Origin: a virus
Lineage: Duplodnaviria; Caudoviricetes
Virus record (IMG/VR): IMGVR_UViG_3300039140_000101
Span: 27,927-91,926 of that record
Length of the DNA stretch: 64,000 bases
Direction: 5' to 3' (one strand)
Shown: positions 5,931 to 58,578 of the stretch, piece after piece
How the letters are laid out: each line of letters opens with the position of its first letter
Position numbering within the stretch: the first letter of the stretch is position 1
The notes under the pieces: model-generated
Database searches by the model: none
What the model was told of the DNA's origin: nothing
What the model saw: only the letters and a program-made list of their open reading frames with translations
Translations under genes and position numbers: made by a program

Positions 5931-6440
5931 ATGTTTGGTTTATCTGATCATACAACATACAGTTTTTTGGATATTTCTGGTTCGATGTTTCATCCAAAGA
6001 TCGGTCCATTTATCTTTACGGGAAATGGTGTTGGGCGATTGACAATTCAACCGACAGGGGAAAGAACTGAACATGATTATGCAACAGATGGTACAGTAAT
6101 AATCACAAAAGTGCCTCCTATTGGTGGAAAAATAATCATCCAGTGTCAACAGGTGAGTACCGTAAATAGTTGGCTGTTGTGGCTATACTCTATCATTTCA
6201 AGTCCTTTAGGAGACGATAATGACTGGGGGAGAATGGTGGTATTGATCAGGGATGTCCAGCATGGCACTCAGTATAATATTCGAGGGGTATCGTTTTCAA
6301 ATATCCCTGAAACTAATTATGCGGGGGTAGGCGAACATGTTATTTGGAGTTTGCCGTATGCTGCTATGCTGGTATTTCCGCCTCATCCGACTGGAGCAGG
6401 ACAATTATCATCAATTGCAAGAAGAATATTGGGCAGTTAA
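5931..6440 (+). CDS. Tail tube protein paralogue (DUF3277-like)
   Basis: HTTYSFLD...FTG.GVG; aligns with next ORF. Confidence 0.7.
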   Translation: MFGLSDHTTYSFLDISGSMFHPKIGPFIFTGNGVGRLTIQPTGERTEHDYATDGTVIITKVPPIGGKIIIQCQQVSTVNSWLLWLYSIISSPLGDDNDWGRMVVLIRDVQHGTQYNIRGVSFSNIPETNYAGVGEHVIWSLPYAAMLVFPPHPTGAGQLSSIARRILGS

Positions 6441-7560: not shown

Positions 7561-9737
7561 TGGATGCCGAAGTTTTTAAAAGCTATCTTATAAAATTAGG
7601 TGTGCAGGTTGACACCGCTGCCTTTGATAAAATGAAGCAGTTGTTGGGCGATCTTGAGAAGGCAATGGGAAAGAATGCCTCCTCTATGGGATTGCAAATG
7701 GTAAAAGGTGCCGGACTTGCTGTCGGTGCTTTAGCCATGATTGACGCTGCAATTGTCAAAACAGTAAAGGCAATTGCAGACGCCGATATGCAATACCAAT
7801 TACTTGGTCAGCGGATGTTTATGTCCACTGATGCAGCCAAAGCGTTTAAACAGGCAACTGACACATTAGGTAAATCCCTAGAAGATATTGCATGGAATAA
7901 AGAGTTAAAGGACAGATATGTTGACTTGGTTCAACAAGTCAATCAACTGAAGCTTCCAAAAGAATCGGCAGAGATGTTCAAGGGTGTTAGAGATATTGGC
8001 TTCCAATTTGACAGATTAAAGTTGGCATCAACACAAGCCCTAGAACATATGGCGTATAATTTGGTGCGAATCAATAAAGGGGAGATGTTTGATTTTAGAA
8101 CCCAATTGAGTTCATGGGTCGATGATTTTATAAAAAAGGTTCCAGAATACGGAAGGAAACTTGCAGAATGGCTACAACCTTTTATTAAAGTTACAAAAAG
8201 TGCAGGTAAAGCAATTATGCAATTGTGGGAGTTTATTCAACCCGGAATAGACAAATTAAAAGAACTTTGGGACAAACTAGATGGTATCCAAAAAATGGGT
8301 GCTGTTTTAGCAGTCACTCTCATTCCTCTTTTCTTGATTGGTTCTCCTTGGTTGCTTGGGTTGGCCGCAATTGGCGCAGCCCTGTTGCTCATAGATGACT
8401 ATATGCACTTTAAAGAAGGGAAGAAATCTCTTCCTCAATTGATTGCACTTTGGGCAACTTTACGTGCTGTGGTTGCATCAGTCCATTTTTATTTGGGTAA
8501 TATTGTAATTGCATTAGATCATATGTATCATTTCTTTTCGGGTAAAGCACATCCAAGTGGCATGTCGTGGTTCCAGCACACAAAGATGTTCAGTAAGGCA
8601 AGACTTAAAGAAATTAAGGAAGGATTATTTGATGCCAAAGAAAAATTGACTGAAGCAGCGGAAAGAGAAAACGCACCCGCTTTGAGAGAAGGAAAAGAGA
8701 AAGTAAAGTGGGAAAAGCAATATATTAAAACGATACAGGTAGTTGAAAAAGGAAGAACCCCTTCTCAAAAGGAAATAGATACGGCTTATAAAGAAGCGGT
8801 AAAACATGGAAGAGTTGCTCCAGAAGTAATTGGAAAGGACGAAACGCCTGTGGAGGCTAAAGGGGAAACAGCAAAACGTGGCAGGGACACTTCCAGTTCT
8901 GCGGTATCTGCTCCAGCCCATTCAGGTCTTACACAATCCGAAAAGAAGTTTTTGACTCAAATATCAAAAGGGGAAGGTACTTCTGAAGAGGAAGCGAGAA
9001 AGCACGGATATGCTACGGGGTATGATGTTACTTTAGGTTATGGAAGATATGCCAAAGAAGAAAAACCAGTTTCTGAAATGACTTTTAGAGAATTAAAAGA
9101 ACATCAAAATAAAATGCTTGCAAAGCAGCGTAGTTTGGGTCTGGGGAAAGACTCCTCAAGTGCTGCTGGGAAATATCAATTTGTAAGAGATACTCTGTTT
9201 GGTAAAAAGGGACAACAAGGTCTTTTGAAACAGGAAGGCATTTCTGAAAATGAAGTATTTTCCCCAGAAATGCAAGATCGTTTGGCACTAGCTTTAATTA
9301 AGGATGCTACCAAGAAATTTAAAACAGGTAGGATGAGTGCAGCAGAGTATCATAATATAGTATCTGGTCAGTGGGCTTCAGTTACTAAATATGGTGCTTC
9401 TGGTGGGTCATATAGGGGACAACGGGCACCAACAACAACCGCAGATTTGGCTCCAATATTTCAATCCTTGAAAAGGGAACCTGTACGGCCTCCAACTTTT
9501 GCTAAAACAAAACAATCTGGTCCTGAATTTGCATCGTTACAAAATTCACCTCCTCCGGGGGCAATGCCAATTAGTACAGAAGGTGCTGCTGCCACTGCGC
9601 CTGTTTACAATGTGACCTCTGTTATTAATGCACAAACAAATGATCCGGCTGAATTGGCAAGGTTGGCAGCAATAGAAAATAAAAAAATGCTGGTTGCAAG
9701 AGAACAGGAAAAAGGAATAAAGAGAAGACAAGGATAG
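7560..9737 (+). CDS. Tape measure protein with lambda-lysozyme-like muralytic domain
   Basis: Helical N-terminus, TM segments, ISKGEG...SSAAGKYQF...QDRLA...QWAS. Confidence 0.85.
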   Translation: MDAEVFKSYLIKLGVQVDTAAFDKMKQLLGDLEKAMGKNASSMGLQMVKGAGLAVGALAMIDAAIVKTVKAIADADMQYQLLGQRMFMSTDAAKAFKQATDTLGKSLEDIAWNKELKDRYVDLVQQVNQLKLPKESAEMFKGVRDIGFQFDRLKLASTQALEHMAYNLVRINKGEMFDFRTQLSSWVDDFIKKVPEYGRKLAEWLQPFIKVTKSAGKAIMQLWEFIQPGIDKLKELWDKLDGIQKMGAVLAVTLIPLFLIGSPWLLGLAAIGAALLLIDDYMHFKEGKKSLPQLIALWATLRAVVASVHFYLGNIVIALDHMYHFFSGKAHPSGMSWFQHTKMFSKARLKEIKEGLFDAKEKLTEAAERENAPALREGKEKVKWEKQYIKTIQVVEKGRTPSQKEIDTAYKEAVKHGRVAPEVIGKDETPVEAKGETAKRGRDTSSSAVSAPAHSGLTQSEKKFLTQISKGEGTSEEEARKHGYATGYDVTLGYGRYAKEEKPVSEMTFRELKEHQNKMLAKQRSLGLGKDSSSAAGKYQFVRDTLFGKKGQQGLLKQEGISENEVFSPEMQDRLALALIKDATKKFKTGRMSAAEYHNIVSGQWASVTKYGASGGSYRGQRAPTTTADLAPIFQSLKREPVRPPTFAKTKQSGPEFASLQNSPPPGAMPISTEGAAATAPVYNVTSVINAQTNDPAELARLAAIENKKMLVAREQEKGIKRRQG

Positions 9738-27187: not shown

Positions 27188-28708
27188 ATGACTACACGAA
27201 TTTACGGTTTTACTGCTTTGACAGGTGGTGGCACAGGAGCATTGGATAAATACCCTGAAGCTGGAATGCCAGCATTGGCTACAGATGATTATGCCTTTGG
27301 TCATGTCGCAGGGGTGTTTTACATTTACTGGTTCAATGGTGCATCTGCTGAAGCAGAAAGTCCTCCTGCTATCATTGCTCCTGATAGTGGTTCAGGTAGA
27401 TGGATACTGAAAGGATTTTCATTTGCTCATAATGATCTCGCAAGTATTGATGGGGGTAATGTTTCACCAGAAGAATATTACCATTTATCATCTGCTGATT
27501 ATAATACTATTAATACAGCACTTGCACAGTCTATTTTAGCCAATCCAACAGGAGGTGCTGCTCCAATTACAAATTTGACCGTAGCCGAGCAGACACTTGT
27601 TGGCAGAATTACTGGTGGGAATGTAGATGCTCTGTCGGTGGTGCAGGTAAAGGCATTACTCGCCATTGTTTCCGATACCGCTTATGCAGCTTCATGGGAT
27701 GGCGTGACTGATGTAGCTCCGAGTAAAAATACTGTTTATGACGAGCTTTATACCCGACCAAGACGTAATGCTATTATCAATGGGAATATGTCTGTGTGGC
27801 AGAGAGGAACAAGTTTTACGAGTGCGACAATTCCTGCAAATAGGGATGATGTTTACCTGATGGACAGATGGACGTTATTATCAGATGGCAATGACATTGT
27901 AGATGTTTCGCAAGTAACAACACCCGTACCTGTTGGTGCATATAGTGCCGCCTGTTTTGATATTGAAACAGAAGATAAAAAATGGGGCATTATCCAAATT
28001 CTTGAGGCCAAAGATGCCGCAAGTTTCATCGGTGGAACGGTATCCCTATCTTTTAAGGCACGAAGGGGAGCAAGCGATACATCTACAAAACTCCGTGCCG
28101 CTGTTTTGTCATGGAGTTCAACAGCAGATGCAGTAACATCAGATGTTGTCAATGCGTGGGGAGATGAAGGAACGAACCCTACCTTGGTGGCCAACTGGAC
28201 ATTTGAGAATGTTCCCGCCGCCCTTACAGAATTAACAGATGACTATCAGACGTTTAAAATTGAAGGCATTGCCATTGATACGGCCAGCACGACAAACATT
28301 GCGGTGCTTATCTGGTCGGATGACAAGACAAACGCTGTCGGTGATCTTGTTTATATTACAGGCGTTCAATTGGAACTCGGTTCAACTGCAACTGAATTTG
28401 AATACAGACCTTACCAAGAAGAAGAAAGACTCTGTACGCGATATGCTTGGAAGTTAACAGCCGATACACTTGGCGTTGCGCTGAATGTTAACGCCGCTAC
28501 GTCTTCTACTTTGTACTTTCCAACCCCGATGCGGGCAACACCGTCAATGTCTGGACAGTCGTTTACTGTAAACACTGGGAATAACGGGACACCGGCTTTG
28601 TATGCTCCATTGTCAACAAATAAGGCCGTCTATGTTTATAACTCTGATGGCAACTGGACAGTCTCCGCAGCTGTTTCATTGACCGCTTTATTTACTTCAG
28701 AGTTATAG
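27188..28708 (+). CDS. Second tail fibre/receptor-binding protein with carbohydrate-binding-like domain
   Basis: RNAIINGNMSVWQRGT, DRW, ITGVQLELGSTATEFEYRP..E..LC.RY, MRATPS. Confidence 0.75.
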   Translation: MTTRIYGFTALTGGGTGALDKYPEAGMPALATDDYAFGHVAGVFYIYWFNGASAEAESPPAIIAPDSGSGRWILKGFSFAHNDLASIDGGNVSPEEYYHLSSADYNTINTALAQSILANPTGGAAPITNLTVAEQTLVGRITGGNVDALSVVQVKALLAIVSDTAYAASWDGVTDVAPSKNTVYDELYTRPRRNAIINGNMSVWQRGTSFTSATIPANRDDVYLMDRWTLLSDGNDIVDVSQVTTPVPVGAYSAACFDIETEDKKWGIIQILEAKDAASFIGGTVSLSFKARRGASDTSTKLRAAVLSWSSTADAVTSDVVNAWGDEGTNPTLVANWTFENVPAALTELTDDYQTFKIEGIAIDTASTTNIAVLIWSDDKTNAVGDLVYITGVQLELGSTATEFEYRPYQEEERLCTRYAWKLTADTLGVALNVNAATSSTLYFPTPMRATPSMSGQSFTVNTGNNGTPALYAPLSTNKAVYVYNSDGNWTVSAAVSLTALFTSEL

Positions 28709-47694: not shown

Positions 47695-48591
47695 CTATAA
47701 AACTGACTGATAGCAGGCCAAAATTAAACCTGCTCTTTTTGAATAAATAAACGACTCGGCAAAGCAACTGATAACAACAGGAGCCTGAGTATTGTTGCCA
47801 TTAAGTAACACAGATGACATGTAGCCTAGTATGGCATATCGAATTGACTCAGGCTCTTCTTTTATATCCTTGAGAATGGGTGCAATATTTACCCACTTGT
47901 CTCTTTTCAGAAGCATACGGCAAAGGTCAATAATTTTTGGATCGGTTTTACCTGTCATTAATAATTGAGATGCTTCTTCAATGTCAGAAATGTCTCTGAG
48001 CATGTCGATTGCAACTACAATTTCTCTTGGGATTCCATTACATTCATCAACAATCAGTTCTTTGATTGCTTGTGATAAATCAATTTTTTCTTCACCACAA
48101 ATCCAATCAATGAGTTCACACGATGCGTCATAGTTGAGTGGTTTTACCTCATAAGATTTGCACCGGCTTTTAATAGTTTCTGTTACCTTATTTGGATCGG
48201 TGGTACATAAGACAAAATAACATGATTTGGGTGGTTCTTCAAAAACCTTGAGTAGAGAATCCATTGCATTTGATGATAACCGGTGGCACTCATCAATGAT
48301 ATAAATTTTATTTTTTCCGGCAAGTGGTGATAAATAAGCGGTGGACTTTAAATGGCGGGCATCGTCAACAGATGTCTTATCTGCTGCATCTATTTCGTAT
48401 ATATCCATGTCGTGAATTTTAAGTTCTTTGGCAATCAAACGGGCAAGCGTTGTTTTACCACACCCCCTCATTCCATGCAACATAAAAGTTTGCGTTCGAT
48501 TTAAAACACTTTTGATATTTTTGACGAGTGTTGGGTTGCCAATGTATTCGTCAAATGTCCTTGGTCGATACTCGAGATGTAATGGTTTCAT
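47695..48591 (-). CDS. dnaX: Clamp loader, DnaX gamma/tau-like
   Basis: YRPRTF, GMRGCGKTTLAR, EIDAA, IIDECH.LS, EEPP, TIKSRC. Confidence 0.9.
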   Translation of the reverse strand: MKPLHLEYRPRTFDEYIGNPTLVKNIKSVLNRTQTFMLHGMRGCGKTTLARLIAKELKIHDMDIYEIDAADKTSVDDARHLKSTAYLSPLAGKNKIYIIDECHRLSSNAMDSLLKVFEEPPKSCYFVLCTTDPNKVTETIKSRCKSYEVKPLNYDASCELIDWICGEEKIDLSQAIKELIVDECNGIPREIVVAIDMLRDISDIEEASQLLMTGKTDPKIIDLCRMLLKRDKWVNIAPILKDIKEEPESIRYAILGYMSSVLLNGNNTQAPVVISCFAESFIYSKRAGLILACYQSVL

Positions 48592-51500
48592 TAAATGCCT
48601 CCCAATTCTTTTATTTTATCAATAAAATTTTTGATACTATCGTTAAATAATATTTTGTTTGATGGATTATGCAACACAGAAGAAGGATGAATGCACCAAC
48701 AAAAGTGCGTCTGATATGTTTCGTTCCATTCTATCTTACCAGATAGGTCTATAATGCCTGATTCCTTATGCTTGAATGCTCTTAACGATGTGTTCCCAAA
48801 GGCAAGGATAATTGCAGGCTTCAAATATTTAATTTCGGCGTCAATCCACTTCTTGCACTTTGTAATATGCTCTTGGGTGGGTGTTTTTATGTTCCCTGGA
48901 TAGCATTTGCATACATTAGTGATATGAAAATCATTTCTTGTAAATCCGTACTGTTTTATAGCAGGCCATAAAATGTCTCTACCAGATCGCCCTACAAACC
49001 CGACACCTCTATCATCTTCATCTTTGCCCGGTGCTTCTCCACAAATCATAATATTGAAAATGCCCGGTGATGGTAAAACTGGTGCGGAGCATTCGGTACA
49101 CAGTTCACATTTTTCACAAGATAAAATTCTTTCGTTGGGTTGTATTGAACGTTGCATGATTGACCCATGATATTTTTTTGGTGGTTTTACATTGGAAATA
49201 GAAAATGAAAAATAATCAGAGACATTATCTTCTGGTTCATTTCCGTATGCACCAATTGTATATAAAATCTTTTCGATTTTTGTTTTCTTTTCAGGACTCG
49301 AATTAGTATCTTTTGTTTCAAAGAATCCTTTTTGTTTCTGCTGTTTTGTTTTGATCTTGGTACATTCTTCCGCTGTCTTTTCTCCAATGCCTTTGATTTC
49401 CACAAAAGGAACATAAAGTTTATTATCTTTAGCAATCCATTTGAAGGCATCAGAAATACCCACTTTCGGTAGTATCAAAGTTAGCCCTAATCTTTTTGAT
49501 TCTTCAATCAGCTCTTCTTTTTTCGATTCTGCTCCGTGTATCAAATTGGCACAAATAAATTCTGTCGGGTAATAGTATTTAACATAGGCACAATAGTATC
49601 CTATGATGGCATATTCTGTTGAGTGGGACTTATTGAAACTGTAATGGCCGTGAGCTTGCAACGCTTCCCAAAAATCTTCTGCCTCTTTTTTATTCAGTGT
49701 CTTTTGTTTCAGACATCCTTCAATAAAAGCCTTTTTGAAGGGTACAAAAAGTTTTGTATCTTGTTTTTTAGCGATGATTTTTCTGATTTTATCTGCTGTA
49801 GAATATGATAGACCGGCTACCTCATGAATTACGTTCATGACTTGTTCCTGATAGATCATAACTCCGTAGGTGGATTTCATTATTTTTTCATACGTCGGAT
49901 GTTTCTTTTTCCATGGTTTACCATTTCGGCGTTTAACATAAAGGTCTGACATTCCTGCATCCATCGCCCCCGGTCGGACTAAAGCAATTACATCACTCAA
50001 TAACTCGATTGAATCAGGCATAACTTCTTTTGCCATTTTAGTGGTCACCCAAGTATTGATTTGGAACACACCTACATTATTGCCTACCGATATTTCACGG
50101 TAGACATTTTGATCATCTAGAGGGATTTTTTCATAATTAATTTCAACGCCATGATTTTGTTTGATCAGGCTTTTTGTCTCGTTGAGAATGGATAATGTGT
50201 TTAGACCAAGGACATCGAGTTTCATTAAGCCCATATATTCGGAATCTTCCATATCCCAGTTTGAAACAATCATATTGTTGCGGTTAACCAGATTGCCTTT
50301 TGTCCCTTTTCTTAAATCATCGGCAGAAATAACAACCGCTGCGGCATGTTGGCCATTGCCACGGATAGTGCCTTCTAAAATAATTGCATGATCACAAACG
50401 TTGGGGTACTTATTGTCAAAAACTCTGCCGATTTCTGTTTTTGTACATGCCTCTTCGATACTATTTTCTTCTTCATAAACAATAGATTTGGCAAATTCAT
50501 CGACTTCTTTAAGAGGCACATTAAAGACCCTGCCGACATCTCTTATTGCTGCTTTTCCTTTCATGGATAGAAATGTAGAAATAGATGCTATGTTATTTTT
50601 ACCATAAAGTTCTTCAAGATGTTCACGGACAAAGTGCCTTTTGGAATCCTCAAAATCAAGGTCAATATCAGGCAAATCATTTCTGTCTTCAGCGATAAAT
50701 CTTGAAAACAACAGGTCATAACGCAAAGGGTCAACTGCAGTAATATTTAACAAATAAGCAACCAAAGATCCGCCTACCGAATTATGAACAAATACTCCTG
50801 AGGACAATGCAAAATTATGATATTTTTCTACCTCAATATCATACATATTACATATTTTATTTATAATTTTAATTGAAATCACTTTATGATTTAAAAATTT
50901 CCCGTTAATTAATTTTTTGCCTTTATTCCATACTGGTTTTCCTTTTTTAGATGCTGATATTTTTTTACAGGTTTCCTCTGAAACTATCCGTCCTGTCATC
51001 CTTTTTTTTATTTGTTGTTTTTCTTGAATGCCTTTTTCTGTCTTAAAATATCTTTTTCTGCCAATGGATACTTTTTCTCTATGTTCTTTTGTTTTATTCC
51101 TTTCAATTATTTCATCTCTTCTTTCAAAATTATGTATTTTAGTATGTTCCCCTTTTAATATTTGTTCAAGATTTTCAGGACAATTATCTAATTTATTAAA
51201 ATTTTTATGATGTACAATGTATTTTCTTTTTTTATCAAAAAGCATGTATTGAGTTAATTTTCTTCTATTACCCATTAAATCAAAATATTCTTCATACCCG
51301 TCTTTGTTATTGTAATAACGATATAAAGGCATCAAACTATCACCAACCAATAATTTATCTGCTCTTTTGTATTTTCCTTTCCTCATTAAAAATCTATGAT
51401 CTAAAGTACATTTAATTTCCTCATTATTATCTAATTTCACTATACATATTTTATCTACTTTTTTTGTAATTCTTGGATTTTTTGCTTTACCAACAACGAT

Positions 51501-52709
51501 TTTGCCATCTTTAGTACAAGAATAGACATCAAACTTTTTATCTTTATATTTAGTTGTTAGTTCTTTAAAAGACATTTCAGTTCCATTAAGAAGAGACACT
51601 TTTGTATCACCAGTAAAACATCCTCTGCCCGGTCCGACCATGATTTCATTTTCTCTGCACCACTTAACAAGATCAAATACAATCATAAAATAGGGTATGA
51701 AATTTTTTGTTTCAATCAAATCGAACTCGGCATCAAGTCGGTTGAGGTATGCTTCATAGGGTGCAAATTGTTCTATACGCTTCAGTTGTTTATGGCATTT
51801 GTTGTATAAAAATTTTGATATTTCATCTTCATTATTCAGATTATAACCAGGGACTTTGGGCAGGTAAATGGATTGCTTTTTGATTTCAAATTCTGCACAT
51901 TTTTCTGCCACTTCAATTGTATTAATCATGGCCTTATTGATTTGACTATCCGAAAGCGTATCTTGTTTAATGAAGGCGTCTATCATTTCATCGGCTGTTT
52001 TTAAGTGCAACCCAGTCACATTAAATTCCCACCGATTAGGGTCGTCCCACTTTGCTTTGCTTTGTATTGCCAATAATACCTCTTGAGTTACAGAATGTTC
52101 TTTTTCAATATAATGGCAATCATTAGTGGCGACTGTTTTTAAGCCGGTTTCGTTTTTAATGTCAAGCAAAATCTTGTTGAGTTCTTTTTGTTTTTTGAAA
52201 TTATGCGGCATGAGTTCAAGATAGAGGTCGTCTTTGATCTTTTTATGTAAGTCATAAAACAAATCAATTCCGCCTTCATGATTCAAAAAGGATTCTGAAC
52301 ATCCTGATAAAATCACCAGACCTTTACAATTATCATACAGTAAATCATAATCAATTCGTGGCCGGTGATAAAACCCTTCAAGATTTGCCATACTTAACAT
52401 CTTGCAGAGATTTTCAAACCCTTGTTGGCTTTTAATGAGTAGAGTGACATGACCTCTTTTTTCACCCTTCTCTTTTTTATTGAGATTGGGAACAATATAT
52501 GCTTCGCAACCCAGTATTGGTTTGATATTATTTTCTTTACAAGCTCTTTGGAATTTGATCAGGCCGTCAATGTTGCCATGATTTGTAAGACTTAAATACC
52601 TGAACTCTATTTCCCTTGCTTTTTTCGCGTATTGATTTGCAGTTCCTAACCCATCCAATATCGAGTACTCGTTATGGACATGAAGGTGACAAAAATATTT
52701 ATTTTTCAT
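48591..52709 (-). CDS. dnaE: DNA polymerase III alpha with intein and C-terminal family-4 uracil-DNA glycosylase domain
   Basis: PHP HLHVH.EYS.LDG, GPGRG|S, PDIDLDF, KLDVLGL, FNKSH; GEAPG...HPS UDG. Confidence 0.95.
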   Translation of the reverse strand: MKNKYFCHLHVHNEYSILDGLGTANQYAKKAREIEFRYLSLTNHGNIDGLIKFQRACKENNIKPILGCEAYIVPNLNKKEKGEKRGHVTLLIKSQQGFENLCKMLSMANLEGFYHRPRIDYDLLYDNCKGLVILSGCSESFLNHEGGIDLFYDLHKKIKDDLYLELMPHNFKKQKELNKILLDIKNETGLKTVATNDCHYIEKEHSVTQEVLLAIQSKAKWDDPNRWEFNVTGLHLKTADEMIDAFIKQDTLSDSQINKAMINTIEVAEKCAEFEIKKQSIYLPKVPGYNLNNEDEISKFLYNKCHKQLKRIEQFAPYEAYLNRLDAEFDLIETKNFIPYFMIVFDLVKWCRENEIMVGPGRGCFTGDTKVSLLNGTEMSFKELTTKYKDKKFDVYSCTKDGKIVVGKAKNPRITKKVDKICIVKLDNNEEIKCTLDHRFLMRKGKYKRADKLLVGDSLMPLYRYYNNKDGYEEYFDLMGNRRKLTQYMLFDKKRKYIVHHKNFNKLDNCPENLEQILKGEHTKIHNFERRDEIIERNKTKEHREKVSIGRKRYFKTEKGIQEKQQIKKRMTGRIVSEETCKKISASKKGKPVWNKGKKLINGKFLNHKVISIKIINKICNMYDIEVEKYHNFALSSGVFVHNSVGGSLVAYLLNITAVDPLRYDLLFSRFIAEDRNDLPDIDLDFEDSKRHFVREHLEELYGKNNIASISTFLSMKGKAAIRDVGRVFNVPLKEVDEFAKSIVYEEENSIEEACTKTEIGRVFDNKYPNVCDHAIILEGTIRGNGQHAAAVVISADDLRKGTKGNLVNRNNMIVSNWDMEDSEYMGLMKLDVLGLNTLSILNETKSLIKQNHGVEINYEKIPLDDQNVYREISVGNNVGVFQINTWVTTKMAKEVMPDSIELLSDVIALVRPGAMDAGMSDLYVKRRNGKPWKKKHPTYEKIMKSTYGVMIYQEQVMNVIHEVAGLSYSTADKIRKIIAKKQDTKLFVPFKKAFIEGCLKQKTLNKKEAEDFWEALQAHGHYSFNKSHSTEYAIIGYYCAYVKYYYPTEFICANLIHGAESKKEELIEESKRLGLTLILPKVGISDAFKWIAKDNKLYVPFVEIKGIGEKTAEECTKIKTKQQKQKGFFETKDTNSSPEKKTKIEKILYTIGAYGNEPEDNVSDYFSFSISNVKPPKKYHGSIMQRSIQPNERILSCEKCELCTECSAPVLPSPGIFNIMICGEAPGKDEDDRGVGFVGRSGRDILWPAIKQYGFTRNDFHITNVCKCYPGNIKTPTQEHITKCKKWIDAEIKYLKPAIILAFGNTSLRAFKHKESGIIDLSGKIEWNETYQTHFCWCIHPSSVLHNPSNKILFNDSIKNFIDKIKELGGI
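50781..51620 (-). mobile_element. Intein (280 aa) with HNH-type endonuclease in DnaE
   Basis: GPGRG|CFTGDT...TLDHRF...VHHKNFNKLDN...FVHN|SVGGS. Confidence 0.9.
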
Positions 52710-53500
52710 GCGGCTACCCTTATTTCTTCTTCTTTATATTTTAATCTCACTATTGTAGTATAGGTTTTTTCCCAGAACTTTCGGTTATGATTTGCCTTAC
52801 TATTGCAAACACAACATAGAGTTATTAAATTTAAATCCGAACAATTGTCTTTGAAATAATCTATGTGGTGAACAGAGAGTATTTTAGTTTTACCTGAACA
52901 ATTTGGATTTTGGCATTCGTTGTTGTCCCTTTTTATTATTCTTTGCCTTAATTTCTTTGTCCATATTGAAGGATAAGGAAGAAAAGATGCTCCGTTTTTC
53001 CAATTTGGGTTTTGTTCTCTATTATGATCGTGTTTTCCTTTCCCAGAGATGCTCCGTTTTTTACAAGTTTCTTCTGATTGCTTTCTTCCCTTATTTTTCT
53101 TAGAAGCTATTTGAAGAGATTGTTTTGCTTTATCAATTCTTTGTTTTCTTCTTTTTTTTGGCATATTATCCCACAATTGTTGAATTGTTTTTCTTCTTTT
53201 TTCAATAGTGGTCTCGGATTGTTTTCTCCCAATCATTTTATTTTTTTTCTTCTCTATCGTTTCTAAAGATTGTTTTCTTCCGGTTGCTTTGATTCTTATT
53301 TTTTGTAATGTTTCTTCCGAATATATACCAGTTTTCCCTTTATTCCAAGGGATCTTACCTTTAGCATTTTGAGGAGGATTAAGTTTGCAATAATGCCCTT
53401 TTAAATAATTAGGAATACCATAATATTTATGGTATGGTTTTATAATTATTTGCTGCCCACAGCCACAATTACAAAGATAAACCTTTTTGTTGTTTTTCAT
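52706..53500 (-). CDS. Free-standing HNH homing endonuclease with NUMOD3 repeats
   Basis: CNCGCG, SEET repeats, RD..CQ..C, VHHIDY..NLITLC..CN. Confidence 0.85.
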   Translation of the reverse strand: MKNNKKVYLCNCGCGQQIIIKPYHKYYGIPNYLKGHYCKLNPPQNAKGKIPWNKGKTGIYSEETLQKIRIKATGRKQSLETIEKKKNKMIGRKQSETTIEKRRKTIQQLWDNMPKKRRKQRIDKAKQSLQIASKKNKGRKQSEETCKKRSISGKGKHDHNREQNPNWKNGASFLPYPSIWTKKLRQRIIKRDNNECQNPNCSGKTKILSVHHIDYFKDNCSDLNLITLCCVCNSKANHNRKFWEKTYTTIVRLKYKEEEIRVAA

Positions 53501-54519
53501 TTCACCACCAACGATATAATATGTTTGAAATGCTGGTCTGTAAATAGGATTTTCCCGTCCCCCAAAAACATTGATGCAGTATGATCCAAAATTTTCATGA
53601 GGAACAAAGGGTTGATGATAAATTCTATTGGTTCACCATCATACTCAATCTTGCCTGTATTGGTAATCCACCCTCTTGCGTTCTGCCCTTTGCATGATAA
53701 CTGATTGGACTCGATTTTGACAGTGATTTCTTTTTCCAAGTCAAAGTCACCAACTGCCAGTACAGATACCATTTCAATCATCTGTTTGGTATTTTTGGGC
53801 AGTGTGATTTCCACTTTCTCAAATCCTTTTAAAAATTTTGAGTAATCAGGAAACTTGTCTATGATAATCATGCAACAAAAGATGGCGTTTTGTTTATTGA
53901 TAAAATATGCCCATGACTTTTCGATGTAAAATTTCAGTGGTTCAAATTTTACTAATTCCACAATTGATGTGGCCGGTACAATGATTTCGTCATTATCAAT
54001 TCCGGAGGCCATCTTATACTCACTAATCCTGAACCCGTCGGTCGATGCAATATAATCACCATCAATCAGGACTCCTGTCAATGCCGGTCGTGTGGCGTCT
54101 TTCGATGTGGAGAACATACACATCGTGATTGCTTCCACAAAATCTTTTGGAAGCTTCTGTGACTTTTTAAGGCTTTTGTTATAGGATAAGAGATTTGCAC
54201 GCTCCAAGATTTGGTCACCAGTATCTGTGGCCAGTGACGCTTTGATTTTCTTCCCCTTGATAGAAATATTTTTATCCACCAAGGATACATCCAAAGTATC
54301 ATCATCAGTACTGGAAATGATTTTATAAAGTTCTTCTGATGGAACCGAACAGGAAAAATCTGTTTCAAATGGATAAACAACACAAATCCGATCATTGTAG
54401 GTCAGGATAGATTCGCCAGTAAAAATGAAATGCGTTGCCTGTTCCACAATATCCTTTTTGGCGAGACCACTTTTGACTGCTTCCAAGGCATTTAAAAATT
54501 CCATTTTGTTAATTTTCAT
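53497..54519 (-). CDS. dnaN: Sliding clamp, DnaN-like
   Basis: RPALTGV, STDGFR, FPDY, INP.FL; next to dnaE. Confidence 0.8.
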   Translation of the reverse strand: MKINKMEFLNALEAVKSGLAKKDIVEQATHFIFTGESILTYNDRICVVYPFETDFSCSVPSEELYKIISSTDDDTLDVSLVDKNISIKGKKIKASLATDTGDQILERANLLSYNKSLKKSQKLPKDFVEAITMCMFSTSKDATRPALTGVLIDGDYIASTDGFRISEYKMASGIDNDEIIVPATSIVELVKFEPLKFYIEKSWAYFINKQNAIFCCMIIIDKFPDYSKFLKGFEKVEITLPKNTKQMIEMVSVLAVGDFDLEKEITVKIESNQLSCKGQNARGWITNTGKIEYDGEPIEFIINPLFLMKILDHTASMFLGDGKILFTDQHFKHIISLVVK

Positions 54520-54701
54520 TTTGTTTTCTCCTTTTTTTTATTTTCATTTCTTATCTCCTCTACGATAATTTTGTACGATTGTTTTCTGAATGGTGTCGGG
54601 CCTACTGTCAAATCATAATATGAAAATAACAGATTGGGTGACTTCATGTGGTCAATACACCCCATTGCATCAATTCCAACGGCTGCAAAATATACCCTCA
54701 C
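54516..54701 (-). CDS. Mini-protein D (DpdA N-terminal-module-like)
   Basis: MRVYFAA...LLFSYYD. Confidence 0.65.
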   Translation of the reverse strand: MRVYFAAVGIDAMGCIDHMKSPNLLFSYYDLTVGPTPFRKQSYKIIVEEIRNENKKKEKTK

Positions 54702-54862
54702 GATTTTTTACCTATACCCGTCTTTGCATATCGCTTAATATAATTCGGATCGTTTTTGATTTCCCTCAAGAAGTAGTAAGACATTAGCCTATACCTTGCC
54801 TCCTGATTTGTTAACGATACTGCCTGATTTTCTTCAAGCCACGTGGCTAAAAAAATTCGCAC
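54698..54862 (-). CDS. Mini-protein C (DpdA N-terminal-module-like), 54 aa, absent from ORF track
   Basis: GTG start, GAGGAGG SD; MRIFLAT...RLMSYYF; GTGA overlap with next gene. Confidence 0.6.
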   Translation of the reverse strand: MRIFLATWLEENQAVSLTNQEARYRLMSYYFLREIKNDPNYIKRYAKTGIGKKS

Positions 54863-55307
54863 GCTTCCCTCCTCTTTTTGCGATTACCCGACCTATGTCG
54901 GTATTCATAAATTCTTCTTTTGGTATTACCCCAACACGACCAAGATCCAAGCGATCGGCATCCCAACATGTTGCAATATGGATATTATCTGTATTGATAA
55001 CATGTGTGTGATAACGAATTGCTTCCAAAAGGTATAAAAAATATTCGTCCGAAAGGTTTGGCAAATAAGACCTCATAGATGCAACCCATCTAGCGGCCCT
55101 TTTCCCATGATTGTAATCTCCATCATCATTTAAACGGCAACTGTCATGAAACAAAGCGAAGAGTTCAACCACCTCAACATTTGCTCCAGTTTCTTTGGCC
55201 ATAATAAGGCCGTTTTCACAGACTCGTCTCCAATGGGTAAGACCATGAATTATTGATTCTGCCCTCCTCATTTTAGATACCATTTCCCAAAGTTCATTGT
55301 ATTTCAT
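54834..55307 (-). CDS. HD-domain phosphohydrolase
   Basis: HG..HW.RV, FHD, HG, DADRLD. Confidence 0.85.
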   Translation of the reverse strand: MKYNELWEMVSKMRRAESIIHGLTHWRRVCENGLIMAKETGANVEVVELFALFHDSCRLNDDGDYNHGKRAARWVASMRSYLPNLSDEYFLYLLEAIRYHTHVINTDNIHIATCWDADRLDLGRVGVIPKEEFMNTDIGRVIAKRGGKRANFFSHVA

Positions 55308-55477
55308 TTTTTCTTCCTCTTCTTTTTTGCTTTGCCAAACTCTTCAAATCGATTTTCTGCCCCATATCCTCTTGTATTGTCTATTAGATCAATATAGGAA
55401 AAGAGCCGTGAAGCTTTTTTCTTAATAAAGTTCCCTTCCAATTCTTTACTGACTACGCCTGCAAAATATACTTTCAT
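55304..55477 (-). CDS. Mini-protein B (DpdA N-terminal-module-like), 57 aa, absent from ORF track
   Basis: MKVYFAG...RLFSYID; ATGA overlaps at both ends. Confidence 0.65.
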   Translation of the reverse strand: MKVYFAGVVSKELEGNFIKKKASRLFSYIDLIDNTRGYGAENRFEEFGKAKKKRKKK

Positions 55478-55632
55478 TTTTTAATTTTCAGTAGTTCCTG
55501 AAATTCCTTTTTACCATCTTCAGTGGATATGTCATAATAGGAGATTAATTTTTGTTTCATACCGGCTTTAATCCATTGCCTTAACCGGTTTATGTTGCTG
55601 ATTCCTGATAACCCAGCAAAGTAAATCTTCAC
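55474..55632 (-). CDS. Mini-protein A (DpdA N-terminal-module-like), 52 aa, absent from ORF track
   Basis: MKIYFAG...KLISYYD; GTGA overlap with dpdA stop. Confidence 0.65.
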   Translation of the reverse strand: MKIYFAGLSGISNINRLRQWIKAGMKQKLISYYDISTEDGKKEFQELLKIKK

Positions 55633-56624
55633 AGGTCAAATCCCTTATTGGATTTTACTTTAAATGGCCACGGCCATTTGGGCAGACTGCGTTCAAGGTC
55701 GAGAAAATATATGATGTTCAATTCATCACGCAATCTGTAATCGTTTGATAATCCCGGTTCTATTATGATCTCCACAAGATCTTTCATGGCAAGTTTGTCA
55801 GGTGGGACATACTTCCCGAGATTTTCAATCAGGTCTCTGCAAGCTTCGGCATCAATACTGTTCACCCATCTTTCACCGTCTTTCAGTTTGTATTTCTTTC
55901 GATCTTCTTTACGATACTCAGATCTGCCTACAGCAAAACCTTTTTCGTCAAAATATTTCAATATTTGTTTTTGTTCCATTGGACTGAAAGTGGTAAAATG
56001 CTGGCCGTCGTCTTTTTGAGACGGTGATTGGTTGGAAATGGTTACTTTTAATGAATTTTCGTTATAGACATATTGGCCTCTCCTAAATTTTGGGACATAG
56101 ACTCCACCAAATCTTCCGGTCTGAACCCATGATGTTGAGTCAACGCTCCACCACGGATATCGCCACATCAGGTCCAAAGAAGTCATTGCAAAACCATGAA
56201 CTTTTACTTTAGGCATACCATCACGATCACAAATATGGTCACTCCATGCTGGGTCTGCCCACTGATAATATTTTTGCTTTGTAAAGAATTGGCCTAATCC
56301 ACCCAACCCAATATATTCACAACCCATGTCAATATATTGGTCAATCCATTTATGATCTTCTCCCGGATGGACAACGCCGATTGGCTTCAATCCTTGCTTA
56401 ACCATATATTTGTAATTTTTCATTGACCTGACTGGGTCGTTAATAACATCAAGGTTAACATAGACATCAATGACCTCTTCATTCTCTTTAATAAATTCAA
56501 TGTAATTTTTAAAGTATTTGTCATACTCCTTTTCATTGAAAGTATTATTCTGTAACATGAGTTTCATATATAAAGAGTGGGCACCCGAATCCAAAAACAA
56601 AGTTACTTCTTTTTTCTGTTTCAT
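55629..56624 (-). CDS. dpdA: DpdA-like DNA 7-deazaguanine transglycosylase (TGT fold)
   Basis: LFLDSGA, LDVI, PIGVVH, YIGLGG, KVHGFA, SVDSTSW; que/folE context. Confidence 0.8.
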   Translation of the reverse strand: MKQKKEVTLFLDSGAHSLYMKLMLQNNTFNEKEYDKYFKNYIEFIKENEEVIDVYVNLDVINDPVRSMKNYKYMVKQGLKPIGVVHPGEDHKWIDQYIDMGCEYIGLGGLGQFFTKQKYYQWADPAWSDHICDRDGMPKVKVHGFAMTSLDLMWRYPWWSVDSTSWVQTGRFGGVYVPKFRRGQYVYNENSLKVTISNQSPSQKDDGQHFTTFSPMEQKQILKYFDEKGFAVGRSEYRKEDRKKYKLKDGERWVNSIDAEACRDLIENLGKYVPPDKLAMKDLVEIIIEPGLSNDYRLRDELNIIYFLDLERSLPKWPWPFKVKSNKGFDL

Positions 56625-56637
56625 AAGAACCTCTCTT

Positions 56638-57654
56638 TTAAAAAAACAACGCTTGTATTTTGTTAGCAATTCTTATTGCAGATTTGTCATACTGTTCTGC
56701 AATAAGAGACATGTTGACTGGGTTTTTTAAATATTTCCAAACCAATTCAACAGCCTCATCAATGGTATCGTATCTGAAACACTTCGGATACATTTCACAA
56801 TAGGAAAGCCTATCAGGGACCACAATTGCGTTGCCTAATGCAATACCCTCGAGCACGCCATATCCAAAATTTTCCTGATCGGCAGCGGAAAAGACTACTT
56901 TCGACTTTGCCAGAAGATCGAAATATTCATCTTTACTTAAATCCATGGTCATAGTTTTTAAAAATTGAACATTAGGTGAACGCATGGATATTATATCGGC
57001 GACATAATCAAAATCTTCCGGATGCTTTTCATCATCAAGACGGCTGTTGAAAACAACGATATCCTCTTTATGTTTACAGAGTTCAATCCGATGTTCATTG
57101 ACAATATCTTTTGTATCAAAAGGCAATCCGGTAACGAAAATTTTGTTGGGTTCATCCGAAACATTGCATCTTAATATTTCAGATTTGTGAAATTCTGACC
57201 CGACGAAAATCGCATCCACCATTTTGAACCAGCCCATCTCCACATAATGAGCCCAGTTTTTAAGTTGAGCAACATAGTCGGTAGTCGTCCATGATCCGGC
57301 ATGGAAAATTCCACAAATACTAATATCAATATTATGGAACATTGCCATGTAAGGAATAGCAATCAGGCCAGGGAACCATAAGTCACTGACAAAAAAGACA
57401 TCGCGATTTTTTACCTTGCCTTGTTGAAATGCCTGACATATTTTTTGTAGCTGACTGAACTTGAAAAAATTGGTTCCGTCGGAATCCAGAAAAGCACCTG
57501 TCTGGATAACTCCTTTTGTCAGGTCTTCTCCGACCACCTTAATAACGGAATCAATACCCACCTCTTCAAATGCGGCGTCAAGTTGCTTGTCCATCAGTTG
57601 GGTATACCTTTTATCAAGATATTCCAACGGCAAATACCAGAGATTTTTTTTCAT
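56638..57654 (-). CDS. GT-B (GT4-like) glycosyltransferase
   Basis: R...EKHP, QENFGYGVLEG, PDRLSY.EM. Confidence 0.85.
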   Translation of the reverse strand: MKKNLWYLPLEYLDKRYTQLMDKQLDAAFEEVGIDSVIKVVGEDLTKGVIQTGAFLDSDGTNFFKFSQLQKICQAFQQGKVKNRDVFFVSDLWFPGLIAIPYMAMFHNIDISICGIFHAGSWTTTDYVAQLKNWAHYVEMGWFKMVDAIFVGSEFHKSEILRCNVSDEPNKIFVTGLPFDTKDIVNEHRIELCKHKEDIVVFNSRLDDEKHPEDFDYVADIISMRSPNVQFLKTMTMDLSKDEYFDLLAKSKVVFSAADQENFGYGVLEGIALGNAIVVPDRLSYCEMYPKCFRYDTIDEAVELVWKYLKNPVNMSLIAEQYDKSAIRIANKIQALFF

Positions 57655-57983
57655 ATATACACCTTTACCCCGTTTTCATTATCTTCAAAAACAGATACAT
57701 ACCTGATAGGATATCCACCGTTAATGAAGTGAGCCAATATTTTGTTTGCCATAGACTCGCATGACGATCTCATTGGAAAGGGGTTTGCGACCAAATATAA
57801 ATCAATGAGCCTTTTGACTTGGAAAAATTCTAACTCTCTTTCCTCATGAGATACAAAAAATGCTGCCTCAACACAAAAGATATGACGATGTGGGTTCTTT
57901 AAAAAGCCCACATCATCAGGTGCTTCCGGCCAGCAATGAAACCCTTCAAATTGTGTGCGAACAATTATTTCAGTAGTAGACAT
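57651..57983 (-). CDS. QueD-paralogue T-fold enzyme, DpdL-like
   Basis: LKNPHRHIF (LxxxHRHxF), RELEF, SCE, EDNENG. Confidence 0.7.
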   Translation of the reverse strand: MSTTEIIVRTQFEGFHCWPEAPDDVGFLKNPHRHIFCVEAAFFVSHEERELEFFQVKRLIDLYLVANPFPMRSSCESMANKILAHFINGGYPIRYVSVFEDNENGVKVYI

Positions 57984-57984
57984 T

Positions 57985-58578
57985 TTACCCTCCAAATGTT
58001 CTTGACAATTTTATTAACTCCAACGCCTCAAGACGGGTATCAATGTTGGTTCTGAAACAACCCCTGGTAGCCGATGTAATCATTCCTGCTCCCATACCCG
58101 TTTTGACACCACGGCATGACATACATCCATGCACGGCACGCATGACCAACATAACACCTTTTGGCCTGATATGTTTGACCACGGCCTCAATAACTTCTAA
58201 AGAAAGGTTTTCTTGAAGCTGTGGTTTCTTTGAATAGAAGTTAATGATTCTACACGCTTTTGATGCACCCATCAATTTATGGTCAGGAACATAAAGCAAC
58301 CATGCAAGGCCAGGGAACGGCAAAAGGTGATGACTGCAAAGAGAAACAAAAGGAATATTGTCAAGCAATACGATTTCATCAAATCCTTTGTCGTTCGGGA
58401 ATGACTTAATAATTTTCTTTAAGACTTTGTCATCGACCTTGGCATTTAACATGAATTCCGTAGCGATCATTTTTGCAAATCGCTTTGGGGTCTCAGCAAG
58501 GTTTGGATCTGATAAATCCAGACCCAAACCTTGCTCCATTACGTCCTTAAATAACTTCTCCGTTTTTTTAAGGTCCAT
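57985..58578 (-). CDS. folE: GTP cyclohydrolase I
   Basis: ETPKR, SLCSHHLLPF, PQLQE, HGCMSCRGV. Confidence 0.95.
   Translation of the reverse strand: MDLKKTEKLFKDVMEQGLGLDLSDPNLAETPKRFAKMIATEFMLNAKVDDKVLKKIIKSFPNDKGFDEIVLLDNIPFVSLCSHHLLPFPGLAWLLYVPDHKLMGASKACRIINFYSKKPQLQENLSLEVIEAVVKHIRPKGVMLVMRAVHGCMSCRGVKTGMGAGMITSATRGCFRTNIDTRLEALELIKLSRTFGG

Follow-up and report, generated by a model that had tools for sequence, protein, structure and literature searches.

A putative split DNA 7-deazaguanine transglycosylase with candidate quarter-barrel subunits in a phage genome

The 64,000-nucleotide (nt) stretch of phage DNA analyzed here, referred to below as the window, is the right-hand 64 kb (positions 27,927 to 91,926) of the 91.9-kb viral record IMGVR_UViG_3300039140_000101 from IMG/VR (Duplodnaviria; Caudoviricetes), which is rated complete. 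It encodes a homologue of DpdA, the DNA transglycosylase that exchanges guanine for a 7-deazaguanine, in split form: a 331-amino-acid (aa) core without the N-terminal module of the family and, downstream of it on the same strand, four paralogous genes of 52–61 codons, mini1 to mini4, that are homologous to the missing module. On balance, we favor the view that these genes encode alternative quarter-barrel subunits of a split DpdA, which probably alter its DNA or partner specificity. The comparison with other phages draws on 80 related IMG/VR loci, whose DpdA is 41–67% identical to that of the window.

The window dpdA starts at an ATG at position 56624 and reads MKQKKEVT before the LFLDSGA strand, that is, eight residues and not the seven given in the initial annotation of this DNA; its close relatives begin at the equivalent ATG. 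A longer gene starting at a TTG at 56669 was rejected because it overlaps the upstream gene, brings in no module, and is not the start used by relatives, and no N-terminal module was found in any frame upstream of the dpdA start. PHROG 887 matches the protein with an E value of 4.6e-45 over profile positions 54–272 only. The AlphaFold2 (AF2) model of the core, with a predicted local distance difference test score (pLDDT) of 87.6, has six barrel strands (β3–β8) followed by a C-terminal coil tail. A VIA-align search identified DpdA 7ui4_A as its best structural match (Z 12.9, root-mean-square deviation 3.2, 220 residues), with model residues 1–316 lying on chain residues 81–409. Other structural matches were archaeal TGT 1iq8 (Z 12.5), QTRT2 (Z 11.7), and bacterial TGT 3unt (Z 11.3), with unrelated barrels at 8.3 or lower. 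Foldseek returned weak TGT matches only, and sequence searches of the PDB with a fused relative, the family profile, or phage 9g DpdA as query gave nothing useful. According to the model, the core has a TGT-like TIM-barrel fold, and because the match to 7ui4 begins only at about chain residue 81, β1 and β2 are missing and the single chain is not predicted to form a complete (β/α)8 barrel. We also considered, and rejected, circular permutation and the replacement of a strand by the C-terminus, as residues 314–331 form low-confidence coil; with six strands and a disordered C-terminal tail, the modeled core has nothing to replace the missing strands. The earlier proposal of a DpdA without its N-terminal module is therefore in accord with the model of the core alone.

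Residues 1–77 of 7ui4 comprise β1, Ins1, β2, and Ins2 (PMC10164549). The published catalytic residues of DpdA (Asp95, Phe99, Asp130, His181, and Asp256) all lie past residue 81, so the N-terminal module (N-module) is a structural or recognition element rather than a catalytic one. Across 52 homologues, D12-S13-G14-A15 is invariant, D12 being the Asp of the DSG motif on β3 and the counterpart of Asp95, the general acid/base, and the spacing from D12 to the gate position is the same as that of Asp95 and Phe99 in Salmonella DpdA. D59, H86, and D162 are also invariant in this set and follow the order of Asp130 and His181, which recognize the base, and Asp256, the nucleophile on β8, a putative equivalence placed by motif and order; D162 (S-V-D-S) falls on the last barrel strand of the core model. 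Based on the retention of D12, D59, H86, and D162, the core appears to keep the chemistry of the enzyme without a quarter of its fold. The gate position, Phe99 in D-S-G-A-F, is occupied by His16 in the window (D-S-G-A-H-S; 56575–56577, minus strand) and by F, Y, or H in relatives; the presence of His16 might reflect the use of another base substrate. A CxCxxC motif, of the kind that marks the zinc site of bacterial DpdA (bDpdA), is absent from the 331-aa core, and no ParB-like DpdB gene was noticed in the operon (the genome was not searched for one). On these two grounds, the window dpdA belongs among the phage DpdA1-like enzymes rather than in the bDpdA subfamily.

The N-module described in the initial annotation for longer phage DpdA proteins does exist. 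In the DpdAs of phage 9g and of Pseudomonas phages, some 60 extra N-terminal residues with the pattern I-[YF]-M-A-A...I-L-E-S-[WY]-H-Y precede F-L-D-S-G-A, and of the 120 best homologues about 25 have an N-terminal M-K-I-Y-L-A-G...L-x-S-Y-Y module, most of the set beginning 3–12 residues before the DSGA strand. A profile of 176 free and fused modules from other loci, with the window excluded, was compared with 1,429 six-frame segments of the window and recovered mini2 (1e-10), mini1 (3e-10), mini3 (7e-8), and mini4 (1e-7), the next best segment scoring 0.47. Exactly four module matches and one dpdA are present in the whole 91.9-kb record. The proposed resemblance of the four small genes to the missing N-module is thus far beyond chance (E 1e-10 to 1e-7 with a window-free profile), and sequence comparison establishes them as homologues of the module that is fused in other DpdAs. 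A narrower profile, made from 25 fused DpdA N-termini only, gives 1.5e-9 for mini1, 5e-5 for mini2, 0.05 for mini4, and 0.4 for mini3; because the last two are weak here, it is mainly the family as a whole that links mini3 and mini4 to the fused module, together with P0109, a natural fusion of the mini4 subtype with a DpdA core (BLAST E 2e-4).

All four window minis conform to the family pattern, with β1 as M-[KR]-[IVL]-[YF]-[LF]-A, β2 as [RK]-L-x-S-[YF], a length of 45–90 aa, and a start at the first residue of the module. The architecture of mini1 is β1, helix, β2, helix, while the other three are distinguished by subtype sequences: S-Y-I-D-L-I-D..R-G-x-G-A-E after β2 in mini2, A-T-W-L...Q-G-x-S-L-T-K in mini3, and L-L-S-Y-Y-D-L...P-F-R-K in mini4. 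Pfam and PHROGs returned nothing meaningful for any of the four, and the ESM Atlas gave no usable match for mini3.

Modeling of a complex between the core and mini1, each with its own alignment, indicates where such a module could sit. In three of three runs the interface score (ipSAE) was 0.85, whereas none of the three controls scored above 0.00; of 80 solved complexes 58 attain the mark used for this score, as do 2 of 110 mismatched pairs, which is a rough guide only since own alignments were used here. The partner had a pLDDT of 72–82, and at least 80% of contacts were shared between runs. The lowest-error contacts join core residues 8–13 (β3) to mini1 residues 28–32 (β2), and core residues 160–162 (the S-V-D strand, β8) to mini1 residues 2–4 (β1), with core helix 297–317 (α8) also in contact with mini1. 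The modeled strand order, β8-β1-β2-β3, is the order needed to close a TIM barrel, and completion of the barrel in trans by mini1 is well supported by these predictions. The suggestion that the first barrel strands are supplied in trans stands insofar as the core lacks the module, the minis are homologous to it, and mini1 closes the barrel in the predicted complex; it is complicated by the free minis found beside fused DpdAs and by the absence or breakage of mini1 in relatives, both of which are taken up below.

The minis behave as real genes. The related loci yielded 227 profile matches at E<=0.01, every one on the dpdA strand, with the first opposite-strand match near E 1. Of 147 free copies, with a median length of 58 aa, all but one (146) have an ATG, GTG, or TTG at profile position 1. 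Compared with orthologues in close relatives, the window minis have a nonsynonymous divergence (dN) of 0.14–0.29 and saturated synonymous divergence (dS), like dpdA, the sliding-clamp gene, and the glycosyltransferase gene: mini2 is 71–73% identical to its orthologues in L087 and L004 (dN 0.18, dS saturated), mini3 is 74–76% identical to its own (dN 0.14–0.17, dS saturated), and mini4 is 60% identical to its orthologue in L084. A search of 1.84 billion representative proteins found 890 clusters at E<=0.001, with 136 of the 150 best being 90 aa or shorter. These patterns show the minis to be genes under purifying selection. It could be argued that such ORFs (open reading frames) are nonfunctional relics of duplicated dpdA 5' ends, since they are short, some are skipped by most gene callers, and some copies in relatives are frameshifted. 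The start codons at profile position 1, the confinement of all matches to the dpdA strand, the start/stop overlaps, dN values far below saturated dS, and the 890 protein clusters already contradict this explanation, to which we give next to no credence.

Across the related loci the common gene order is FolE, minis, DpdA, minis, clamp, minis, PolIII alpha, with one to five or more minis per locus. Nearly all loci with a split dpdA hold at least one free mini, the exceptions being L017, the marginal L075, and the truncated L078; a survey of related phages for co-occurrence of short DpdA with these ORFs, as advised in the initial annotation, is thus positive almost throughout. Judged by these sequences, the arrangement is common in uncultured phages. 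Among cultured phages, tblastn against 50,697 records gave no match for mini3 and a single match at E 0.8 for mini1, and we know of no isolate with this arrangement. No fusion of a module to a non-DpdA protein was seen among the 150 best representatives; a search for longer proteins with the mini profile also returned nothing, which is weak evidence as candidates were crowded out. Free tandem module doublets of 99–117 aa exist as well.

It is conceivable that the minis act independently of DpdA, either by self-assembly, four quarter-barrels making a barrel, or by binding replisome proteins encoded by the neighboring genes. Their location, in many loci, in the interval separating the clamp gene from the polymerase gene, the presence of exactly four in the window, and the existence of tandem doublets without a core would suit this explanation. 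We consider it very improbable, as the number per locus varies from one to five or more, several subtypes are naturally fused to DpdA cores with no other fusion partner among those 150 representatives, and mini1 docks into the core in the predicted complex with controls at zero.

On a quick unrooted tree of the cores, 15 changes are required to account for the fused and split states, and branches with good support force 4 or more of these. The window core belongs to a group of 18 in which every member is split. Of the 25 fused dpdA genes, 21 retain an in-frame ATG 4–14 codons before β3, where split cores begin (e.g., L043, L067, L040, and L063), and about half have a Shine-Dalgarno-like purine run upstream of this ATG. 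This internal start codon is consistent with repeated fission and fusion (or the trace of a recent fusion), or with internal initiation.

The minis form conserved subtypes that recur across distant loci and are rarely repeated within a locus, and some subtypes occur both free and fused. When 123 minis are aligned, conservation is concentrated in the docking strands (I3, Y4, A6, R28, L29, S31, and Y32) and at two helix positions, and the variable positions are 8–27 and 34–43. The variable stretches follow β1 and β2, on what is the catalytic face in TIM barrels, and are the counterparts of Ins1 and Ins2. In the published DpdA structure, Ins1 is assigned to the DNA-binding surface and Ins2 to the flank of the active site (PMC10164549). 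Based on this correspondence between the variable loops and Ins1/Ins2, the subtypes probably alter DNA or partner recognition.

We therefore propose that the phage DNA 7-deazaguanine transglycosylase of this virus would be encoded as a split enzyme, in which the 331-aa core contributes β3–β8 together with the residues motif-matched to the published catalytic ones, and a mini of 52–61 aa would supply β1, helix, β2, helix in trans by slotting between β8 and β3. The four diverged versions of this quarter, co-transcribed and translationally coupled with the core, would each give a different holoenzyme with conserved docking strands and with catalytic-side, DNA-facing loops after β1 and β2 that differ by subtype. 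The outcome would most likely be several DNA-context or partner specificities for one core and hence broader protection of phage DNA. Docking of all four minis is plausible, as are their interchangeability and a change of specificity. A bolder form of the proposal, which we put forward tentatively, is that an interchangeable quarter-barrel library reshapes the DNA-facing loops so that a single phage would make a set of DpdA isoenzymes that differ in target motif or base substrate. Equally tentative is its corollary that DpdA is here a natural combinatorial enzyme, varied by exchange of fold pieces, with related phages expanding, fusing, or switching copies on and off. Phage DpdAs are described as having DNA target motifs in PMC10484667 and PMC7544227.

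Several observations weigh against a split enzyme with alternative subunits. The complex model covers mini1 only, and resemblance to TIM barrels of solved structure can be enough for a split enzyme to pass such a test. When a relative with a naturally fused N-module was modeled with AF2, that module had a pLDDT of only 43–65. Free minis are also present in about 20 of the 25 loci whose DpdA is fused, and five representatives (P0130, P0131, P0162, P0203, and P0261) have two or three tandem modules, each Met-initial, before one core, so that a simple pairing of one module with each core does not account for everything. Coupled translation would be expected to produce minis in about fourfold excess (4:1) over cores. 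The two commonest subtypes are never found fused, A-T-W-L (that of mini3) being 29 times free and A-P-G-N-E 20 times free, each with no fused case (0), and it is thus family membership by itself that argues for their role as barrel pieces. Finally, L087 and L004 are without mini1 and in L084 mini1 is frameshifted, from which we infer that mini1, the modeled partner, is not essential in this lineage.

Some of these points would suit a role of the minis as regulators or decoys that occupy the β1-β2 site, giving an inactive or delayed enzyme, or as assembly chaperones, with only one mini or a fused module yielding active DpdA. Minis coexist with fused DpdAs, they outnumber the core, the commonest subtypes are never fused, and every subtype retains the conserved docking strands that a competitor would require. 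However, neither the window nor its clade has any fused module, so the enzyme can work only if one or more of the minis is productive; moreover, purifying selection acts along the whole length of the minis, variable loops included, and we found no known precedent for such regulators. A regulatory role is accordingly one that we regard as rather unlikely.

The state of the minis in close relatives bears on a further explanation, that they are redundant spares which all complete the barrel equally well and give the same enzyme, the copies being kept as insurance against disruption (by frameshifts or homing-endonuclease insertions) or for on/off switching. In L084 (83% identical; the same sequence in three samples), positions 5999–6318 contain a mini1 with one extra A in an A-run and a mini2 with one A fewer right after the ATG, so that both are out of frame; the reading frames of mini3 and mini4 are undamaged, and an extra mini follows the clamp. 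The intact subsets therefore differ, being 1–4 in the window, 3, 4, and the extra copy in L084, and sets without mini1 in L087 and L004. Dinucleotide repeats of at least four units are enriched about 13-fold in the minis of related loci relative to large ORFs (1.18 vs. 0.09 per kb), and homing-endonuclease-like genes lie inside these modules. All of this would fit redundancy. Set against it, the window minis contain no such dinucleotide repeat, only A6, A6, T7, and A8 runs; the subtypes are old, conserved over distant loci, and rarely duplicated per locus, which fits distinct roles better; and the loops of the catalytic face carry subtype-specific sequence. Redundancy is thus possible but, in our judgment, doubtful, and we retain the split DpdA with alternative subunits as the preferred reading. 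In many related minis (L013, L025, L027, L033, L056, L083, and others) the repeats are (AG)n or (GA)n runs encoding R-E-R-E, and in several copies the run is directly followed by a truncation or a frameshift.

All of the genes concerned belong to a single, tightly packed minus-strand operon running from 58578 to 48591, in which neighboring genes are joined by ATGA or GTGA overlaps (Table 1). On re-checking, the coordinates, strand, and motifs previously reported for the four small ORFs were all correct. Their description as a coupled string holds for the start/stop overlaps but not for continuity, as an HD-domain gene of 157 aa lies between mini2 and mini3.

Table 1. Genes of the dpdA operon in the window, in order of transcription.
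Feature	Position	Strand	Remarks
GTP cyclohydrolase I (FolE)	57985-58578	-	Pfam GTP_cyclohydroI, E 1.1e-44
114-aa gene	57651-57995	-	H-R-H-x-F motif; no Pfam match
GT-B-like glycosyltransferase	56638-57654	-	Weak matches, E 0.003
dpdA core, 331 aa	55629-56624	-	PHROG 887, AF2 model, structure match to 7ui4
mini1, 52 aa	55474-55632	-	GTG start overlaps dpdA stop as GTGA
mini2, 57 aa	55304-55477	-	ATGA overlap
HD-domain gene, 157 aa	54834-55307	-	Pfam HD, E 1.4e-4; between mini2 and mini3
mini3, 54 aa	54698-54862	-	GTG start; overlaps end of HD gene by 29 nt
mini4, 61 aa	54516-54701	-	GTGA overlap; stop overlaps sliding-clamp start as ATGA
Sliding clamp, downstream module boundary	53497-54519	-	Pfam DNA_pol3_beta_2, E 1.2e-10
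HNH-type gene, 264 aa	52706-53500	-	HNH or NUMOD-repeat homing endonuclease look, by eye
PolIII alpha with intein	48591-52709	-	Last gene of operon

The GTG of mini3 lies 5 nt past a Shine-Dalgarno sequence, GGAGGG, and both are contained in the last 29 nt of the HD-domain gene. This gene is absent at the same place in the close relatives L084, L087, and L004 and, for that reason, looks like an insertion that is probably outside the DpdA system. ORFs of 150–230 aa are interleaved with minis in other loci as well; nine of ten had no Pfam match and one is endonuclease VII-like. At the place of the window's HNH-type gene, L084 has its fifth mini-gene (7656–7820, I-I-N-V-K-G-R-E subtype), and the HNH-type endonuclease may have displaced a fifth mini between the clamp and PolIII alpha. 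A link to 7-deazaguanine precursor synthesis is provided by FolE in the dpdA operon and by PTPS/QueD and radical-SAM (QueE-like) homologues, in L084, of genes upstream in the window. The glycosyltransferase and the 114-aa gene form a pair directly upstream of dpdA, and the same pair is present in only 6 of the 80 related loci.

The closest known counterparts are the phage DpdA1 enzymes (Enterobacteria phage 9g, CAjan, and Pseudomonas Queuovirinae-like phages), which are 35–38% identical over the core and share PHROG 887, the DSGA and S-x-D-S motifs, the neighborhood of FolE, DpdA, clamp, and polymerase, and the same N-terminal module. In those phages, however, the module is fused in one chain with no free copies beside the gene, whereas in the window it is present as four separate paralogous genes. 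DpdA of the Salmonella Montevideo Dpd restriction-modification system (PDB 7UI4) resembles the window enzyme in its TGT-like TIM barrel, the large insertion after β8, and the DSG Asp, but its barrel is complete in a single chain, it contains a CxCx2Cx22H zinc site, and its partner is the ATPase DpdB (PMC10164549). Eukaryotic QTRT1/QTRT2 likewise pairs a TGT-family catalytic subunit with a paralogous noncatalytic partner, although QTRT2 is a whole second barrel that dimerizes with a complete QTRT1, and is one partner rather than a set of quarter-barrels. As described in PMC4591997 and PMC13137295, (β/α)8 barrels can be cut and reassembled from fragments, and half-barrels and quarter swaps serve to model barrel evolution. 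Those laboratory fragments are engineered, whereas here the split is natural, falls after the second strand, and involves a small fragment that has radiated into conserved subtypes.

By analogy, the minis may also be compared with the HsdS subunits of Type I restriction-modification, in that one catalytic machine would be served by several alternative small subunits, the specificity role being only a proposed one for the minis. In Type I systems, alternative small HsdS subunits encoded nearby could set the DNA target and are sometimes switchable. HsdS has no homology to the minis, and it is a separate DNA-binding protein rather than a piece of the catalytic fold. The DpdA literature that we searched distinguishes the subfamilies bDpdA and DpdA1–4 and mentions no split form or accessory mini-proteins. 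DpdA itself is known, and what appears to be undescribed is a natural intra-barrel split with radiated alternative quarter-barrel subunits.

Phage DNA with a modification of the DpdA type is shielded against restriction enzymes and Cas9, and the determinants of DpdA target motifs are, to our knowledge, not understood. If our reading is correct, exchangeable fold-completing subunits would explain how one core covers several motifs. The locus would also represent a rare natural intra-barrel split, bearing on the evolution of TIM barrels from smaller pieces, and a ready scaffold for engineering the specificity of DNA base exchange. Because gene callers routinely miss the mini-genes (most skip some of them), many "truncated" DpdAs in metagenomic data may have been misread as defective.

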